Assembly (NCBI GenBank): GCA_020344015.1 | Contig: CP070812.1 | Location: forward strand, 4,261,489 to 4,325,488 | Direction: 5' to 3' | Source of the DNA: Gemmatimonadota bacterium | GTDB taxonomy: Bacteria > Gemmatimonadota > Gemmatimonadetes > Palauibacterales > KS3-K002 | DNA: 64,000 nt | Shown here: positions 1-31,895 of the stretch, in pieces | How positions within the stretch are numbered: position 1 is the stretch's first letter | Layout of the letters: every line of letters starts with the position of its first letter | Translations under genes and position numbers: made by a program | Notes under the pieces: model-generated | The model's input: the letters and a program-made list of their open reading frames with translations, nothing else | The model's database searches: none | What the model was told of the DNA's origin: nothing

Positions 1-300
1 CTTCGAGACCTCCAACCCTTCGATACCCGCCTGATATGCCGCCGCGGCTCGCCGTACAACCCCCGGGCCCAGATCGATGAGGTACGGCGTGTCGTCCACG
101 ACGATGGCGACCGCTGAACCCGAGCGGTCGGGCTCGGCGTTCGGCGTGCCGGTCCCCAGCAGGACGACCTTTGTGCGCGCCGCCTGCTCGAGCTTCGCCG
201 GCGCGCGCTCCTCGTCGTCGGGCGAACTCGGACGACAGGCCGTAATGGTCGCCATTGCCAGCACGAGAGAGTAGCGAAGCGCGCTGCGGACTATCCTCAC
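1..300 (-). CDS. MBL-fold metallo-hydrolase, N-terminal fragment (gene runs off left edge of window)
   Basis: Minus-strand reading from GTG at 300..298 gives VRIVRSALRYSLVLAMATITACRPSS...KVVLLGTGTPNAEPDRSGSAVAIVVDDTPYLIDLGPGVV. This is a signal/lipoprotein-like N-terminus followed by the classic MBL beta-strand/Asp motif. A GAAGGGG Shine-Dalgarno sits about 8 nt upstream. The ORF is in frame to position 1 with no stop. It is absent from the ORF track because it is open-ended. Confidence 0.55.
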   Translation of the reverse strand, partial: MRIVRSALRYSLVLAMATITACRPSSPDDEERAPAKLEQAARTKVVLLGTGTPNAEPDRSGSAVAIVVDDTPYLIDLGPGVVRRAAAAYQAGIEGLEVSK

Positions 301-320
301 GCGTGCAACCCCTTCGTAAT

Positions 321-459
321 GGGAATTCGGCAATCCATGACTAATTGACTAATAGAACAACTGAGCATCTGAATTCGGAACCGGCTTTGCAGACACGTTC
401 CATATTCAAGTAGTCTATTAGTCTATTACTCAAGTAGTCATGGATTGCCGAATTCTCCC
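321..459. repeat. AT-rich palindromic element with 21-bp perfect terminal inverted repeats (MITE-like / long hairpin)
   Basis: The left arm GGGAATTCGGCAATCCATGACTA (321-343) is the exact reverse complement of the right arm TAGTCATGGATTGCCGAATTC (435-455). The arms extend imperfectly for about 15 more bp. Internal sub-repeats are TGACTAAT x2 and TAGTCTAT x2. The block is markedly AT-rich relative to its flanks. Confidence 0.6.
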
Positions 460-485
460 CGTTCTTCTTGTTCCCACTACAACAT

Positions 486-2057
486 CTACCGCCGCCGGTA
501 TTCTCCCCAGCTCCTCATCGGCGTCCGGCACTCGGGCCAGGTCATCTGCTCGCCCGTGCGTTGGCTCACCGGCAGCACGCGCTGGTCCCGCGGCATTAGC
601 TCGTCCTCCTCGGCGGCGAGGTAGGCGAGCATAGCGTACAGCGTCGCGTTGTTCTTGAGATCGTCCAGCACGATCTTGTCGAACGTGTCACGCTGTGTGT
701 GCCAGGTGTATGGGAAGTACGACCAGTTGAGCGACCCCAGGCCCATGGCGGGCCCGCCCGTGCACGCGAACGACGCGTGATCGCTGCCACCGCCACTCGG
801 TGTGCCGGGTACCGTGAGGTCGATGTGTCGCGAGATCTCCGTAGGTATCGCAGAAAGCCAGCGCCCGAGGTACTCACCGGAACGGGTCAGGCCGCCCCCG
901 CTGGCCCGCACGATCCGGCCGGTCCCGTTGTCCTGGTTGAGCAGGACCTGCAGCCCATCGACCACCTCGGGATGGTCGGCCACGAAGGCACGTGACCCGA
1001 TGAGCCCCTGCTCCTCAGCGCCCCACAGTCCGGCGATGATCGTGCGCTTCGGGTTGGGATAAACGGCCTTGAGGATCCGCATCGCCTCCATCATGATGAC
1101 GCTGCCCGTCCCGTTGTCGGTGGCACCCGAGCCGCCGTCCCAGGAGTCGAAGTGGGCCGAGAACACGACGTACTCGTCGGGCTTCTCGGTACCACGAATC
1201 TCGGCGATCGTGTTGAATATCGGCTCCTCACCATGGAACCGGGCATGTGCCTCGACCTCGAGCACCGGACCCTGATCGTGCTTGGCGAGGCGGTAAACGA
1301 GTCCGTAGTCCTCGCAGCTCAGTCCCAGCGACGGCCCCTCCTCGGTACTGGCGCTGAACACCCGGTGTACACCCCAACCGCCGGGCCAGCTGGTCGTCAG
1401 GATCCCGCTGACGCCCGCCTCCTCGAGAACGCCCGGAAGGCTACGCTGGTTGTAACCGGTGCGTTCGATCCGCGCCCGCCACTCGCGGCGCGCGGTGTCG
1501 CGCTCGGCCTGCATCCGCTCAAACGACGCGGCCGTTGCGTACTCTTCCCAGTTGTCGTTGGGACGACACGAGGGTTCGGGGTACGAAACGAGGACGAACT
1601 TGTTCCTCGCCTCGGGCAGCCAGGCCTGGAAGGCGGCCGAGTCCGCGACGTCGGGAAGGATCACTACCCCGGCCTTTACCTTTCCACGCGTGCCGGCGCT
1701 CCAGGCGAGCAACATCCCTTCCAGGGTGCGGACTCGGGGCTCGAGGAGATCGATGTGCGTGATCCCGCGCTCCCAATTCATCCACGTACCATACTGCTCG
1801 TTGCGCGCCTCGATGCCCCAGCTCTGGTACATCTGCACCGCCCATTGGTTTGCCGCCTTGTGGGCGGGTGACCCACTGAGCCGTGGGCCGATCGAGTCGA
1901 GCAGCGCCTGCGCCAGACTGTAGGTCTGCGAGTTCTCCGTCCCCTCCTCCCAGATGCGCTGGAGGACGGGGTCCTCAACCGGGAAGGTCTGGGCCGACGT
2001 CGTGGAAGCAACCGTGAACAGCGCGGCGACGAGCGTGAAACCGATCCTGATTCGCAT
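486..2057 (-). CDS. M28-family zinc aminopeptidase, secreted
   Basis: Internal start MRIRIGFTLVAALFTVASTTSAQ is a signal peptide with a GGAG RBS upstream. HFDSWDGGSGATDNGTG, EEQGLIGS and GGGSDHASF match the M28 metal-binding motifs. The ORF track start at 2192 is probably an upstream alternative start. Confidence 0.85.
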   Translation of the reverse strand: MRIRIGFTLVAALFTVASTTSAQTFPVEDPVLQRIWEEGTENSQTYSLAQALLDSIGPRLSGSPAHKAANQWAVQMYQSWGIEARNEQYGTWMNWERGITHIDLLEPRVRTLEGMLLAWSAGTRGKVKAGVVILPDVADSAAFQAWLPEARNKFVLVSYPEPSCRPNDNWEEYATAASFERMQAERDTARREWRARIERTGYNQRSLPGVLEEAGVSGILTTSWPGGWGVHRVFSASTEEGPSLGLSCEDYGLVYRLAKHDQGPVLEVEAHARFHGEEPIFNTIAEIRGTEKPDEYVVFSAHFDSWDGGSGATDNGTGSVIMMEAMRILKAVYPNPKRTIIAGLWGAEEQGLIGSRAFVADHPEVVDGLQVLLNQDNGTGRIVRASGGGLTRSGEYLGRWLSAIPTEISRHIDLTVPGTPSGGGSDHASFACTGGPAMGLGSLNWSYFPYTWHTQRDTFDKIVLDDLKNNATLYAMLAYLAAEEDELMPRDQRVLPVSQRTGEQMTWPECRTPMRSWGEYRRR

Positions 2058-3914: not shown

Positions 3915-4245
3915 AACCGTGTTACCACGTGAAAGTTACCGATTTTGAGAACCTTATAGGCTATCCGCCCAAGCCACCCCTGTCAACCACGACCTGAGGC
4001 TGCCGCAACCCCTTCCCGCTCCTCGCCTTTGGTCCCATACCAGGACCCAAGTGCGATAGCCCCTGGTCGAGCCTCGACGGATCGGGTGCCCTCCAACAAG
4101 AGCGGCTCTTCTTGCCGAGCGCCCATCCGCCCGGCTGGGCTTGGAACTGTTTACACCCCATACGCGTTGAGGTTGACACAGCCGCGCGGCACAGCGTGCC
4201 GGTCGACCCAGTGTTCTTCGTCCACTGGCCCACCGGGAGAATACT

Positions 4246-5622
4246 ATGCCAGCCAACAACAACGTCGGAGCGTTCAAGGCGAGTCTGCACGGTGAGCTGA
4301 TCCAACCGAACGACGCGGGCTATGACGAGGCCCGCAAGATCTACAACGGCATGATAGACAAGCGGCCGCGCATGATCGCCTACTGCGCGGACGTGGAGGA
4401 CGTCCAGAGAGCGGTACGATTCGGCCGGGAGAACGAGATGCTGACGGCGATCCGCGGCGGCGGCCACAACGGCGGAGGCTTGGGTCTCTGCGATGACGGC
4501 CTCGTCGTCGACCTCTCGAAGATGAACGACGTAGCCATCGACTCCGAGGCCCGTACTGTGAGGGTGGGCGGCGGCTGCACCTGGAACGATGTGGACACGG
4601 CGACGCACGAGCACGGTTTGGCAGTCCCCGCCGGCACCATCTCCACTACAGGGGTCGCCGGCCTGACGCTGGGCGGCGGCGTCGGCCATCTGACCCGGAA
4701 GTACGGCCTCACCATCGACAACTTGCTCGCCGCTGACCTGGTGCTGGCCGATGGGAGCACGGTCACCGCCAGCGCAGAGGACAACGAGGAACTCTACTGG
4801 GCGATCCGCGGCGGCGGCGGCAACTTCGGCGTCGTCACGTCGTTCGTGTTCAGGGCGCATCCCGTACACACGAACTACGCCGGGCCGACGCTCTGGGAGC
4901 TCGACCAGGCGGCCGAGGTATTGAGTTGGTACCGTGAGTTCATATTGAAGGCACCGGAGGAGCTAGGCGGCTTCTTCGCTTTCCTCGTAGTCCCCGGACC
5001 TCCTTTCCCCGAACATCTGCACGGCAAGGCGATGTGCGGCGTCGTCTGGTGCTACACGGGTCCGATGGAGAAAGCCGAGGAGGTCTTCAAGCCGATTCGT
5101 GAGTTCGGGCCACCGGCCTTCGAGCACGTGGGACCGATGCCGCACCCGATGATGCAGAGCATGTTCGACGTCTTTTATCCGCCGGGGCTACAGTGGTACT
5201 GGCGGGCCGACTTTGTTAACGAGATCAGCGATCAGGCTATCGCCGAGCACGTGAGGTTCGGCTCCGACATCCCCACCGGGCACTCGACGATGCACATGTA
5301 TCCCATCGACGGGGCGGCCCACCGTATCAGCAACAGCGAAACGCCTTGGGCCTATCGCGAGAGCAACTGGGCTCAGGTAATCGTCGGTGTCGATCCGAAC
5401 CCGGCGAACAAAGGCAAGATCATCGACTGGACGAAGTCGTACTTTGACGCGCTCCACCCCCACTCGGCAGGCGGTGCGTACGTGAACTTCATGATGGACG
5501 AAGGACAGGAGCGCGTTAAGGCGACGTACCGTGACAACTATGCCCGGCTGGCCCGAATCAAGAAGCGGTACGATCCGGACAACTTCTTCCGGGTGAACCA
5601 GAACATCGAGCCAGCCGGCTGA
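4246..5622 (+). CDS. FAD-linked oxidoreductase (FAD_binding_4 / berberine-bridge-enzyme-like)
   Basis: RGGGHNGGG and GGGCTWNDV are FAD-binding PCMH motifs. C-terminal ...ARIKKRYDPDNFFRVNQNI is a BBE-like tail. Confidence 0.9.
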   Translation: MPANNNVGAFKASLHGELIQPNDAGYDEARKIYNGMIDKRPRMIAYCADVEDVQRAVRFGRENEMLTAIRGGGHNGGGLGLCDDGLVVDLSKMNDVAIDSEARTVRVGGGCTWNDVDTATHEHGLAVPAGTISTTGVAGLTLGGGVGHLTRKYGLTIDNLLAADLVLADGSTVTASAEDNEELYWAIRGGGGNFGVVTSFVFRAHPVHTNYAGPTLWELDQAAEVLSWYREFILKAPEELGGFFAFLVVPGPPFPEHLHGKAMCGVVWCYTGPMEKAEEVFKPIREFGPPAFEHVGPMPHPMMQSMFDVFYPPGLQWYWRADFVNEISDQAIAEHVRFGSDIPTGHSTMHMYPIDGAAHRISNSETPWAYRESNWAQVIVGVDPNPANKGKIIDWTKSYFDALHPHSAGGAYVNFMMDEGQERVKATYRDNYARLARIKKRYDPDNFFRVNQNIEPAG

Positions 5623-5642
5623 GGCGACGCCGGGGGGCGCAT

Positions 5643-7154
5643 TCAGGCCACGGCGTAACGCGACGTCACGTCCGTGTCGGCCGGACCGGCCAGGATACGG
5701 AACTCGTCCGCCCGCATCAGCGGGTCGTCGCGGACCTCGATGTCGACCCTGTACTCGGACTCGAGCCGCCGCAGCAGGTTCGGTTCCTCCTCCAGGATGT
5801 GGAGGGCCACTTCGGGGTGCAGGCGGATCACTAAACGCCTCTCCTCCCGCGCCGCCGCCACTCGGTGCACCGCGCGCTCGACCCGGCGAACCACGGTGGC
5901 CGGGGCAACGATGCGCCCGGCTCCCTCGCAGTAGGGGCACGGCCGGGTTACCGTATGGTAGACCGTCGGCCTCACACGCTGGCGGGTCATCTCGACCAAC
6001 CCCAGGTCGGAGATCGGGAACGCCTTGGTTCGCGCCCGGTCGCGGCCCAGGTGCATGCGCAGCTCTTGCATCACCCGATCGCGGTTCGCCTTGTCCTCCA
6101 TATCGATGAAGTCGACGACGATGATCCCGCCGATGTCACGCAGGCGCAGCTGCCGCGCGATCTCGCGAGCGGCGTCCAGATTGGTCCGCAGGATCGTCTT
6201 CTCGGGATCCTTCTTGCCCGTGTAGCGACCGGTGTTCACGTCGATCGCCACGAGGCCCTCCGTAGGCTCGATAATCACGTAGCCGCCCGACGGCAGCTCG
6301 ACCCGGCTCTCGAGCGAGCGGCGGATCTCCTCTTCGATCTCGTACTTGTCGAACAGTGGGACCGTGCCGTCGTAGAGGTTCACGCGGCGCATCAACTCGG
6401 GGTCCACTGCCTCGAGGTAGCCGCGGACCTCGTTGTAGATCTCCCGCGAGTCGACGATCAGCGCGTCGACCTTCTCGCTGAACAGGTCTCTGATGATACC
6501 GGCGGCGAGATGCGCCTCCTGATGAATCAGAGCGGGCGCCTGGGCTTGTGAGACGCGAGCCTCGATCTTCTTCCACGTCTTGCGCAACCCTTTCAGCTCG
6601 CGCTCCAGCGGCTTGCGGGCCGCGTCCTCACCCACCGTCCTGACGATGACGCCGCCCTGGCCGGTCTGTAAGACGTTGCGCATCACGCGGCGCAGGCGGG
6701 TCCGCTCGTCACGGTTCTCTATCTTGCGCGAGACGCCGATGTGCTCGCTGCGCGGCATGTAGACCAGATAGCGGCCGGGCAGCGATATCTGCGCGGTGAC
6801 GCGTGGCCCCTTCGTCCCGATCGGCTCCTTGGTGACCTGGACGAGAAGCTCCTCGCTCTTCTTGATCAGGGTCTGGATGGGCGGGTAGCGCTTGACGCCC
6901 TTCTCTTCTTCCGACGCCTCGGGGTCCTCATCGGCGAGGTCGGAGACGTGGAGAAAGGCGGCCTTCTCGGTCCCTATGTTGACGAAGGCGGCTTGTATGC
7001 CCGGTAGTACGCCCTCAACGCGCCCCAAGTAGATGTCGCCCACCATCCGCTGCGCGTCGGGGCGATCCAGCATCAACTCTACAAGGACGCTGTCCTCCAT
7101 GATCGCGACTCGCGTCTCGTGCGGAGCCGCGTTTATCAATATTTGCCTTTTCAT
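5643..7154 (-). CDS. rng: ribonuclease G (RNase E/G family)
   Basis: MKRQILINAAPHETRVAIMEDSVLVELMLDR opens with an S1 domain. DVNTGRYTGKKDPEKTILRTNLDAAREIARQLRLRDIGGIIVVDFIDM is the catalytic core, and CPYCEGAGRI is the Zn-link. Length is 503 aa. Confidence 0.9.
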   Translation of the reverse strand: MKRQILINAAPHETRVAIMEDSVLVELMLDRPDAQRMVGDIYLGRVEGVLPGIQAAFVNIGTEKAAFLHVSDLADEDPEASEEEKGVKRYPPIQTLIKKSEELLVQVTKEPIGTKGPRVTAQISLPGRYLVYMPRSEHIGVSRKIENRDERTRLRRVMRNVLQTGQGGVIVRTVGEDAARKPLERELKGLRKTWKKIEARVSQAQAPALIHQEAHLAAGIIRDLFSEKVDALIVDSREIYNEVRGYLEAVDPELMRRVNLYDGTVPLFDKYEIEEEIRRSLESRVELPSGGYVIIEPTEGLVAIDVNTGRYTGKKDPEKTILRTNLDAAREIARQLRLRDIGGIIVVDFIDMEDKANRDRVMQELRMHLGRDRARTKAFPISDLGLVEMTRQRVRPTVYHTVTRPCPYCEGAGRIVAPATVVRRVERAVHRVAAAREERRLVIRLHPEVALHILEEEPNLLRRLESEYRVDIEVRDDPLMRADEFRILAGPADTDVTSRYAVA

Positions 7155-23924: not shown

Positions 23925-24184
23925 CCTTCGTACGCCTCAGACAGATGCTCATCGTGGTCTTCCGCGACCCGAGATCGACCTTCCGGGTCGGCGTACTTCC
24001 CCACCACCGCCATAGCCTCGCGCACCAGCCCGTCTCGGCCAAGCTCCAGCTGCTCACCGGCCAACCGCTCCGCCACGCAGCGCCGCACGGCCTCCGACAT
24101 CGAGATCCCTACGCGATTCGCCCAAGCCTTCAAGCGCCGGTGCATCTCATCGGGCAATTGGATCTGAGTACGTACCATCTTCAT
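23921..24184 (-). CDS. vapB: ribbon-helix-helix antitoxin VapB
   Basis: MKMVRTQIQLPDEMHRRLKAWANRVGISMSEAVRRCV is an RHH/CopG fold. Start moved from the track M1 to the internal MKM. The track M1 would include the promoter palindrome. Confidence 0.7.
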   Translation of the reverse strand: MKMVRTQIQLPDEMHRRLKAWANRVGISMSEAVRRCVAERLAGEQLELGRDGLVREAMAVVGKYADPEGRSRVAEDHDEHLSEAYEG

Positions 24185-24187
24185 GCC

Positions 24188-24210
24188 ACCATTATATGAT
24201 ATCATAATGT
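24188..24210 (-). promoter_or_regulatory. vapBC promoter/operator: TATAAT -10 box overlapping a 12-bp palindrome
   Basis: On the minus strand, TATGATATCATA is a perfect palindrome at 24195-24206. It is followed by TATAAT (24196..24191) about 7 nt before the MKM start. RHH antitoxins typically bind such palindromes. Confidence 0.4.
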
Positions 24211-24266
24211 AATGATCAAGCTGCTACCCAGAGTGGGAGGCTGGCGGACGCGACCCGAGAAGCTTT

Positions 24267-24611
24267 CTATTCGGCCTCGAGCAGGATGTGCAGTTTCGAG
24301 ACCACGTCTCTTATAACACGTCCAGGTACCTGGCAGATGAACTCCACCTTCCGCTTCTCCCAATCCAAGCTCTTGACCTGATCCGACAACACCACGCCTT
24401 CCACACCACTCCCCTTCGGGGTTTCGACTTCGAAGGGATAGCCCTTGACACGCGACGTGATCGGGCAGACCAAAGCCAGGCCGACCTTCTCATTGTAAGA
24501 AGCCGGTGAGACTACGAGCGCCCGTCGCCGCCCCCCTTGTTCGTGACCCGGCTGCGGGTCGAAGCTCAGCCAAATCGCGTGACCGCGGCCCGGCACGTAG
24601 CCCACTACCAC
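24267..24611 (-). CDS. mazF: MazF/PemK-family endoribonuclease toxin
   Basis: VPGRGHAIWLSFDPQPGHEQGGRRRALVVSPASYNEKVGLALVCPITS is typical PemK/MazF. It overlaps the antitoxin by 7 nt. Confidence 0.85.
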   Translation of the reverse strand: MVVGYVPGRGHAIWLSFDPQPGHEQGGRRRALVVSPASYNEKVGLALVCPITSRVKGYPFEVETPKGSGVEGVVLSDQVKSLDWEKRKVEFICQVPGRVIRDVVSKLHILLEAE

Positions 24612-24847
24612 ACCTCCCTACCGACTGAACGGCCCGTCTCGATTTCGCCATGCCTGTTCTGCGGCGTCACACCGGCGAGCAAATCGGTGAGGGAATAACC
24701 CTCAGCCCTCACCGCCCTCACGCTCAACTTGTCGCCATCCAGCTCGATCTCCACCCGCGACCCCTCGGAGATCCCGGCCTCGACCGCCAGGGCTTTCGGG
24801 ATCCGCAGCGCAAGGCTGTTACCCCACTTTCGTACGTGCGATTCCAT
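24605..24847 (-). CDS. mazE: MazE/AbrB-type (SpoVT_AbrB) antitoxin
   Basis: HVRKWGNSLALRIPKALAVEAGISEGSRVEIELDGDKLSV is a swapped-hairpin AbrB fold. Confidence 0.85.
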   Translation of the reverse strand: MESHVRKWGNSLALRIPKALAVEAGISEGSRVEIELDGDKLSVRAVRAEGYSLTDLLAGVTPQNRHGEIETGRSVGREVW

Positions 24848-24968
24848 GAGTCTCTATCTCAGTTAACTCTTTGTTTCATAGACATTTACATTATGTCCAT
24901 ATACGTATCTACATAGTATCTACATAGAATCTACATCAGCTCCGTTGTTCCGTCAAACTGCGACCACG
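24848..24968 (-). promoter_or_regulatory. AT-rich mazEF upstream region with 11-bp tandem repeats and an inverted repeat
   Basis: ATCTACATAG x3 occurs with period 11 at 24907-24937. GACAT-N7-ATGTC inverted repeat lies at 24881-24897. GC content is much lower than the surrounding DNA. Confidence 0.45.
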
Positions 24969-31696: not shown

Positions 31697-31710
31697 CAGC
31701 GCCCCTGTAG

Positions 31711-31895
31711 CCGGTGGCCGGTAGGTCGGTGGTCGGTAATGGCCAATCGCGGGATGGGAATCGGAAACTACCGGCACACCGGCCCACTGGCCACCGGCTA
31801 CCGTTCGCACCGGCTACCGTTCCCACCGGCCCACCGGCTACAGGCTACCGTTCCCACCGCCTCACCGACCACCGACCACCGCCCACCGGCACCAT
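31711..31895. repeat. structured repeat block in divergent promoter (inverted arms plus 16-bp direct repeats)
   Basis: Left arm CCGGTGGCCGGTAGGTCGGTGGTCGGTA (31711-31738) pairs with right arm CACCGACCACCGACCACCGCCCACCGG (31863-31890). Between them are CACCGGCTACCGTTC(G/C) x2 plus CACCGGCTACAGGCTACCGTTCC with a 16-bp period (31792-31854). The ORF-track ORFs here (TGYRSHRLPF repeats) are artefacts of the repeats. Confidence 0.6.

Follow-up and report, generated by a model that had tools for sequence, protein, structure and literature searches.

The AT-rich segment at positions 323–455 of the 64-kb window, a term used here for the whole stretch of Gemmatimonadota DNA that was analysed, is considered with moderate confidence to be an old member, inherited vertically, of a lineage-specific family of small palindromic ('foldback'-type) repeats of Gemmatimonadota. 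The best reading of this family is that of a low-copy, non-autonomous palindromic repeat that resembles MITEs and REPINs in its behaviour and lacks one defining feature of each. Each copy consists of two inverted arrays of about seven phased octamers around a short, usually GC-rich stem-loop, the near-invariant outer octamer GAATTCGG being followed by CAATCCAT and then by GAMTAMTT-like units. Gemmatimonadota are common in soils and saline sediments, and few studies have addressed the biology of their genomes. The literature searched yielded no account of repeats of the REP, MITE or ERIC type in Gemmatimonadota, and this lineage-restricted, dispersed, non-coding, and palindromic repeat family is apparently undescribed.

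The Palindrome in the Window

The two ends of the element are formed by the 21-mer GAATTCGGCAATCCATGACTA, which comprises the first two octamers of the arm and the start of the third one. It is located at 323–343 on the plus strand and, as the exact reverse complement, at 435–455 (minus strand), and no further site for it was found in the 64-kb window with up to three mismatches allowed (chance expectation, 0.01 matches). The GC content of 323–455 is 39.8%, compared with 64.3% for the window, in which only four AT-rich islands are present, the hairpin element among them. Both the perfect 21-bp terminal inverted repeats and the AT-rich block described in a first-pass annotation of this DNA are, thus, borne out. 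That annotation had also reported an arm similarity of about 36 bp. The corresponding match (321–356 with 414–449) does exist, but it reflects a shifted register arising from the octamer repeats, while the real inverted-repeat arms are 323–381 and 397–455, each of 59 nt and 80% complementary. The internal 8-bp sub-repeats noted at the same time were recovered as well (TGACTAAT twice at 338–353, and TAGTCTAT-type units at 403–439) and prove to be part of a strict 8-nt periodicity that extends along both arms. Stop codons are found in all six frames, so the element contains no ORF.

The boundaries of the element are fuzzy, in the window copy as in the family. The block initially delimited at 321–459 is real, but its limits are slightly too narrow, as the inverted repeat usually continues outward. 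In the window, comparison of the flanks places a degenerate outer repeat, GTAATGG, at 316–322 (plus strand), and an inverted repeat, 316–325 with 471–480, surrounds the element. In the right-hand outer region (456–480, minus strand), the partner of the outer repeat is CCCACTAC at 473–480, which reads GTAGTGGG on the minus strand and is set off from the end of the element by 17 nt (456–472) of GGGAA-like filler. A GTAGTGGGA(A/G) motif after the stop codon is also present in the related loci L036, L037, and L038, with near variants in L045 and L046.

On either strand, the 133 bp fold into one long hairpin. The minimum free energy of the minus-strand RNA, whose folding had been proposed as a check on the element, is -69.4 kcal/mol (z = -9.5) and that of the plus-strand RNA is -62.8 kcal/mol (z = -8.4), and no shuffled sequence folds equally well in either case. 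In the minus-strand fold, the stem gains two pairs between GG at 321–322 and CC at 457–458, and the downstream RBS stays free. The window copy has only a weak central stem-loop (377–401), with a 15-nt loop closed by the pairing of GGAAC and GTTCC.

Both flanking genes are encoded on the minus strand. The upstream gene (486–2057) codes for a secreted M28 peptidase (Pfam PF04389, E = 1e-35), for which orthologues were found, and its TAG stop at 488..486 is 30 nt from the element. The downstream gene (1–300), which runs off the window, is assigned by synteny to an MBL-fold (Lactamase_B_2) lipoprotein, whose residues 1–100 share 72% identity with a 317-aa Lactamase_B_2 protein encoded in syntenic position by a relative. 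This gene is preceded by the RBS GAAGGGG at 315..309 and starts 22 nt beyond the element. The earlier placement of the element in the 3' UTR of the M28 peptidase gene and upstream of the MBL RBS holds, with the GTG start codon corrected to 300..298 instead of 299.

Other non-coding features of the window were recorded independently of this element. An AT-rich island at 24600–24950 (minus strand), in which ATCTACATAG-like units form three direct repeats (24900–24930), is located upstream of an apparent AbrB/MazE-type antitoxin, followed by a MazF/PemK-like toxin, and judging from the sequence the island is probably the operator of the toxin–antitoxin pair. An AT-rich island at 24110–24235 (minus strand), with the palindrome TATATGATATCATAATG, lies upstream of a ribbon-helix-helix-like small ORF that starts near 24183, and from its sequence this island looks like another antitoxin or repressor promoter. 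Finally, the window contains a GC-rich inverted repeat at 31707–31801 (GTAGCCGGTGGCCGGTAGGTCGGTG...), whose 25-nt arms are 88% complementary, with 45 nt between them; it has no relation to the AT-rich family.

A Dispersed Family of Diverged Copies

When an exact 18-mer from the terminus was scanned against 185,579 species genomes (one genome per species, 596 Gb), 23 loci were obtained, 13 of which are true homologues of the whole element. All 13 copies belong to Gemmatimonadota, where 7 MAGs contain up to 3 of them each, at a total of about 10 unrelated intergenic sites. The search for multiple copies suggested in the first-pass annotation was, thus, successful, revealing related units rather than a unique sequence. 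The other 10 loci, together with L032, match only across an 18–24-nt core and were rejected as copies, and the number of these 10 core-only loci is close to the approximately 17 matches that an 18-mer is calculated to have by chance in 596 Gb. Scanning metagenome contigs with a 20-mer yielded five additional loci, i.e., three counterparts of known loci, one half element, and one bare 20-mer match. As detection required an exact 18- or 20-mer match, the copy numbers are minimum values, and each copy has one arm that is biased in favour of the query. Moreover, of the five occupied orthologues of the window's site, a single one retains the exact 18-mer and, thus, the true family is probably several-fold larger.

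The elements of the family range from 41 to 147 bp in size, and each of the 12 copies analysed folds into a long hairpin (-33 to -87 kcal/mol). The best copy is 82% identical to that of the window, with no identical copy in any scan. Arm identity among paralogous copies is about 0.6–0.75, no two of them being near-identical, and paralogues in one genome are as diverged as copies from different genomes. Therefore, the paralogous copies are all old, and no recent movement is shown by them. A greater likeness of arms within a copy than between copies was only marginal (0.65 vs. 0.59) and was not retained.

An arm HMM applied to 345 kb (the window plus related loci) detected no second copy in the window, and BLAST searches of plasmid and phage collections gave no matches to the element. 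In Rfam 15, nothing exceeded the threshold, the sole match being MIR6135, a plant miRNA hairpin (42 bits vs. a threshold of 99), which was dismissed as a generic long-hairpin match. Seven matches of the 18-mer in viral contigs (IMG/VR, L001–L007) were equally rejected as coincidental, all of them residing in one AT-rich phage gene family, where the 18-mer TTCGGCAATCCATGACTA encodes GSAIHDY and could mislead short-seed searches for the repeat.

Phased Octamers and Their Conservation

Each arm is built from seven in-phase octamers with the consensus GAMTAMTT, the G and the A being nearly invariant. In the window, the left arm (323–378, plus strand) reads GAATTCGG CAATCCAT GACTAATT GACTAATA GAACAACT GAGCATCT GAATTCGG, and the right arm (400–455, minus strand) reads, from 455 down, GAATTCGG CAATCCAT GACTACTT GAGTAATA GACTAATA GACTACTT GAATATGG. 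The arm consensus of the family, from the end inward, is GAATTCGG CAATCCAT GACTACTT GACTAATT GAACAATA GACTACTC GAATTGAG. This periodicity results in a lag-8 self-match of 0.58 for the window copy and 0.51 family-wide, against a background of about 0.24 at other lags. A terminal consensus of 21–26 bp, (T)GGGAATTCGGCAATCCATGACTA, is common to all copies, and the inverted repeat usually runs 3–8 nt further out, with (G)TTGG or GTAGTGG before GAATTC, the consensus just outside GAATTC being GTAGTGG or TGTTGG.

Conservation was measured on the arms that had not been used to find the copies, which removes the ascertainment bias. On these arms, the outer octamer GAATTCGG exhibits 97% pairwise identity and octamers 2–7 exhibit 65–77%, while in octamers 3–7 the first G is conserved at 91% and the following A at 98%, with 40–68% at positions 3–8. 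The notion that the termini are far better conserved than the interior was accordingly moderated, as only the first octamer is near-invariant (0.97) after the correction. Most of the other copies carry a central GC-rich stem of up to about 11 bp, GAGAAnGGCCGC...GCGGCCnTTCTC. RNAalifold retains a 20-bp terminal stem, the GA:TC rungs, and the central stem, in which compensatory changes occur at alignment columns 66/92. In the mid-arm, no pairing other than the GA:TC rungs is consistent across copies and, thus, selection for RNA pairing is not demonstrated by these folds.

The arrays also vary in their number of units. In L018, an additional GAATTCGG is present on both arms in symmetric positions (351–373 and 501–523). 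The terminal octamer tends to amplify in tandem elsewhere, with four CCCGAATC-like units in L012 (~121–165). In L041, a non-syntenic relative, a GC-rich inverted pair of GGGGAACG/GGGGACGG octamers follows an M28 gene at 5590–5690, which suggests that hairpins built from octamers are more widespread in these genomes.

Change and Persistence at Orthologous Sites

At the site occupied in the window, some form of the element is found in all relatives whose peptidase is 83–89% identical. In L037 (peptidase identity, 89%), the copy has lost three left-arm octamers and harbours a second element of 172 nt nested in its right arm. L046/L047 (88%) contain a 41-bp mini hairpin made of the two termini only, L036 (85%) contains a 47-bp mini hairpin, and L045 (85%) retains only a remnant (GGGGATACCCGAATCCCC). 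In L038–L040 (83%), the site is taken by a 128-bp relative with the same octamer arrays and different termini (GGGAGGTCAGAG). Finally, L043/L044 (75%) have no spacer at all, the TAG codon being followed after 4 nt by the GTG of the lipoprotein gene. A comparison with empty sites had been proposed in the first-pass annotation, and L043/L044 do provide an unoccupied site, but its junctions are not clean and, since more distant relatives lose synteny, insertion and loss are not told apart at the M28/MBL site.

The KamA site displays a similar gradation, with a full copy in L018, a half element consisting of one arm and the central GC stem in L049/L050 (93%), a half element with a variant terminus in L051 (86%), and nothing recognisable in L054 (80%), where the junction is again not clean. 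L029, L030, and L031 represent one site, where L029 contains a 60-bp form and L030 and L031 contain 125-bp forms. Furthermore, the copies at L025:7004–7145 and L022:6527–6668 are inverted with respect to each other, being 88% identical as reverse complement and 75% in direct comparison. Their left flank, the MlaD gene, is 89% identical, and their right flanks are unrelated, with Lon next to one copy and a GspE-like ATPase next to the other; the element, therefore, marks a rearrangement (synteny) breakpoint. Taken together, copies change in place by gain and loss of octamers, deletion of the centre or of an arm, inversion, and nested insertion, and they persist across species at orthologous gene-end sites.

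Two further kinds of elements were observed at these loci. A sister subfamily with termini GGGAGGTC..., the same phased octamer arms, and a central GC stem is represented by L038:5583–5710 (also L039 and L040), the occupant of the window's orthologous site in the 83% relative, and by a second copy at L018:6962–7122, which is situated just after a TAG stop and 6.5 kb from an A-type copy. The nested element is GC-rich, 172 nt long, and bounded by 15-bp terminal inverted repeats (CAGGTCGCTGAARAACG...), and it is located inside the right arm of its host element. It is complete at L019:5461–5632 and L037:1887–2058, with the same length and about 82% identity, and partial at L014:~4067–4118 and L012:~1–107. 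In these four different loci and genomes, it occupies the same octamer phase, just before TTAGTCA/CTAGTCA. The nested element is strongly structured (-101 kcal/mol, z = -6.3), has no matches in Rfam, and, among the loci examined, occurs only inside host elements. It represents either a site-specific insertion or part of a composite that moved as a unit.

Placement at Gene Ends

Genes at these loci were called from third-position GC content and from reading of the translations, not with a gene finder. At every locus with callable neighbours, the element begins 3–30 nt after a stop codon, and the flanking genes at 10 sites are co-directional in six cases, convergent in four, and divergent in none (P = 0.056). 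The neighbours are unrelated housekeeping genes, e.g., those for enoyl-CoA hydratase, MlaD, Lon, NIF3, M14 peptidase, acyl-CoA oxidase, PolX, phosphate acetyltransferase, MltG, PhzF, and KamA, among others. Since these genes are functionally unrelated, the idea of a regulon or operator was rejected. A fixed orientation relative to the upstream gene was likewise discarded, as the calls are weak (82% vs. 78% identity) and the orthologous loci L025/L022 are inverted.

The adjacent stop codon is TAG in 11 out of 14 cases (the window, L008, L011, L014, L018, L019, L024, L025, and L029–L031), a weak excess over the local background of 45–52% (P = 0.01–0.04). Several copies have their adjacent stop codon within the degenerate outer repeat, in the arrangement TAG-nTGG-GAATTC, and the outer repeat of the element may supply or overlap the stop codon.

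Relation to Known Classes of Bacterial Repeats

REPINs are REP doublets that form hairpins (Bertels & Rainey, PMC3116915, PMC3337134). Their inverted ends are conserved, their hairpin-forming spacer is variable, and they persist vertically for a long time (PMC3337134), a pattern also described in bioRxiv 10.1101/2021.07.10.451892 and 10.1101/2022.05.22.493013. The family described here behaves most like a REPIN, and its size, terminal repeats, and intergenic position give it the look of a Correia/ERIC-type MITE. A strict REPIN, in which two inverted REP units would be mobilised via single-stranded hairpin intermediates by a single-copy RAYT encoded elsewhere, is nevertheless an unlikely identity. 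Such a RAYT would be an IS200/IS605-like HUH tyrosine transposase, its gene being expected to be flanked by GAATTCGGCAATCC units. The family does possess two conserved units inverted around a spacer of 5 to about 100 nt that is variable in sequence and always forms a hairpin, as in the definition and pattern of PMC3337134. It also shares with REPINs an extragenic position, the lack of target-site duplications, half-elements as decay products, and a long vertical persistence at orthologous sites (the M28/MBL and KamA series, L029/L030/L031, and L025/L022). Moreover, GTAG stands beside REPs, and a GTAG/GTAA-TGG motif is found just outside GAATTC at several ends of the family. However, unlike the REP unit, the terminal unit does not contain a palindromic core, folding alone as single-stranded DNA at -0.3 to -0.6 kcal/mol, no better than shuffles (43–144 of 200 fold as well), and the spacer is a phased octamer array. 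The 1–3 copies per genome detected by exact 18-mer look far below the hundreds typical of REPINs, and no link of RAYTs or REPs to Gemmatimonadota was found in the papers searched. Less probable again is a classical MITE, i.e., an internally deleted derivative of a DDE-transposase IS with the same terminal inverted repeats, whose target-site duplications would have been erased by age. The terminal inverted repeats of 21–26 bp, the small, non-coding size, and the dispersed copies are all features of MITEs, to which the apparently empty site in a relative might be added, and L019, alone among the copies, is flanked by a 7-bp direct repeat (ATTAGAT). Against this stand the searches for target-site duplications proposed in the first-pass annotation, which came out negative: in 10 independent copies (offsets 0–14, lengths 2–9), no repeat is common to more than two copies and, with mismatches allowed, nothing rises above a flank-swapping null. 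In addition, neither the window nor 345 kb of related DNA yielded a transposase or a longer element with the same ends, and the phased-octamer arms with their symmetric changes are atypical of IS deletion derivatives. The original description as a miniature transposable element, therefore, survives as far as a dispersed, multi-copy repeat is concerned, with an apparently empty site in one relative, but no target-site duplication, no near-identical paralogues, and, in the sequences searched, no autonomous parent were found. Lacking a REP core on the one hand and target duplications on the other, the family is filed under neither REPINs nor MITEs.

Readings that dispense with mobility fare worse. 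A symmetric set of 8-bp-spaced sites that the host maintains at gene ends, and to which a regulatory or nucleoid-associated protein binds, would account for the contrast between the 97% conserved outer octamer, the 91% and 98% conserved G and A of the later octamers, and the 40–68% at other positions, for a pattern that is symmetric on both arms and independent of orientation, and for mini forms that keep just the two termini. Yet the neighbouring genes have no common function, and the element has been lost (L043/L044, L054), halved (L049–L051), or reduced to a remnant (L045) while the genes beside it were kept; as the 8-bp spacing does not match the helical repeat of DNA either and no candidate protein is known, we deem such a host-functional palindrome improbable. 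The possibility of a local regulatory hairpin or terminator specific to the peptidase–MBL operon can practically be dismissed. The first-pass annotation had reasoned that a single-copy element at a conserved position in relatives and without target-site duplication would be a local hairpin rather than mobile DNA. The position is indeed conserved in close relatives and no duplication is seen, but the element is not single-copy as a family, its termini and architecture recurring in 7 genomes at about 10 unrelated loci. This refutes the local reading, which is further disfavoured by the lack of a T-tract terminator and by the relative without the element. An integron attC site was also considered and rejected. 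The outer GTTGG...CCAAC motif recalls the GTTRRRY/RYYYAAC of attC, but attC carries these motifs in the opposite order; the motif is absent from the window copy, and neither a cassette array nor an integrase was found nearby.

Several other named repeats offer partial parallels. Correia/NEMIS elements of Neisseria and ERIC/IRU elements of enterobacteria are bacterial MITEs that form long hairpins co-transcribed with flanking genes, and members of this type act on RNA through RNase III or RNase E processing and mRNA stability. Like the family, they are imperfect palindromes of 100–150 bp with conserved terminal inverted repeats, they are intergenic and often found at gene 3' ends or between cistrons, and they generate size variants via internal deletion. 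However, Correia elements duplicate TA on insertion, whereas the family shows no duplication, and it differs from Correia and ERIC elements in the absence of sequence similarity or an Rfam family, in its AT-rich octamer build, and in its far lower copy number. Foldback (FB) transposons, which are kilobase-scale eukaryotic elements with arms of tandem sub-repeats, resemble the family in their long inverted arms of short tandem units that are gained and lost; unlike it, they make target duplications, and any relation would be one of analogy only. In cyanobacteria, short tandemly repeated (heptamer) sequences contain small dispersed repeats nested within the tandem arrays. They share with the family an intergenic array of short units whose length is not a multiple of three, and the nesting of small elements, here the 172-nt element, but they belong to another phylum, differ in unit length and sequence, and do not form one palindrome with conserved termini.

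Possible Routes of Spread and Action on RNA

The copies share their termini at many unrelated intergenic sites and, therefore, the family has spread by copying. This copying was probably performed in trans by an enzyme that reads the outer one or two octamers. Since no target duplication is seen, a single-strand or hairpin route (HUH/RAYT-like) or a template-switch route appears somewhat likelier than DDE cut-and-paste, although this preference is weak, as old short duplications could have eroded.

Regarding function, the location of the element points to co-transcription between the peptidase and MBL cistrons, probably in the form of an intercistronic hairpin. The transcribed stem, of about 55–60 pairs, might serve as an orientation-independent punctuation mark at the RNA level, for instance by blocking 3' exonucleases, by offering a processing site of the RNase III type, or by terminating transcription in part. 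In this way, the peptidase and MBL genes, between which the relative without the element has only 4 nt, would be uncoupled. By analogy with ERIC, Correia, and REP elements, a role at the mRNA level is proposed, and the element, if co-transcribed, would affect mRNA processing, stability, or read-through. The first-pass annotation had suggested an RNA stem-loop acting as terminator or stabiliser. The hairpin is real, but no stem followed by a T-tract was detected on either strand of the window, L018, L049, and L025 copies, nor was a sigma-70-like promoter found in any of these four copies; with neither a U-tract terminator nor a promoter signature, the terminator or stabiliser role is a matter of inference.

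The phase-locked GA and the near-invariant outer octamer would also fit recognition by a protein, which keeps the protein-binding palindrome of the first-pass annotation alive. It is conceivable, although the odds are low and about those of a classical MITE, that the family constitutes a distinct bacterial foldback class, neither an IS-derived MITE nor a REP/RAYT system, or else a domesticated array with 8-bp spacing that is read by a host protein and marks gene ends. As a foldback class, its evolving unit could be the phased 8-nt module with the invariant GA, and a hairpin-templated process could keep the arms symmetric, as suggested by the same octamer on both arms of L018 and by the flip of the element between L025 and L022. 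Its spread without target duplication could rely on an enzyme that reads only the outer GAATTCGG–CAATCCAT.

Implications for Gemmatimonadota Genomes

The low-copy palindromic repeat favoured here is a familiar kind of bacterial repeat DNA with an unusual build from eight-base units. Its GGGAATTCGGCAATCC ends, together with a GA every 8 nt, provide a family marker that can be used to follow repeat dynamics, synteny breaks, and intercistronic punctuation in Gemmatimonadota genomes. Moreover, the graded series of empty, full, mini, remnant, and nested forms at one locus, with half elements at the KamA locus, illustrates how a bacterial palindrome decays. Should a binding protein or a new copying mechanism underlie the phase-locked octamers, the family would represent a third type of small bacterial repeat beside IS-derived MITEs and REPINs.
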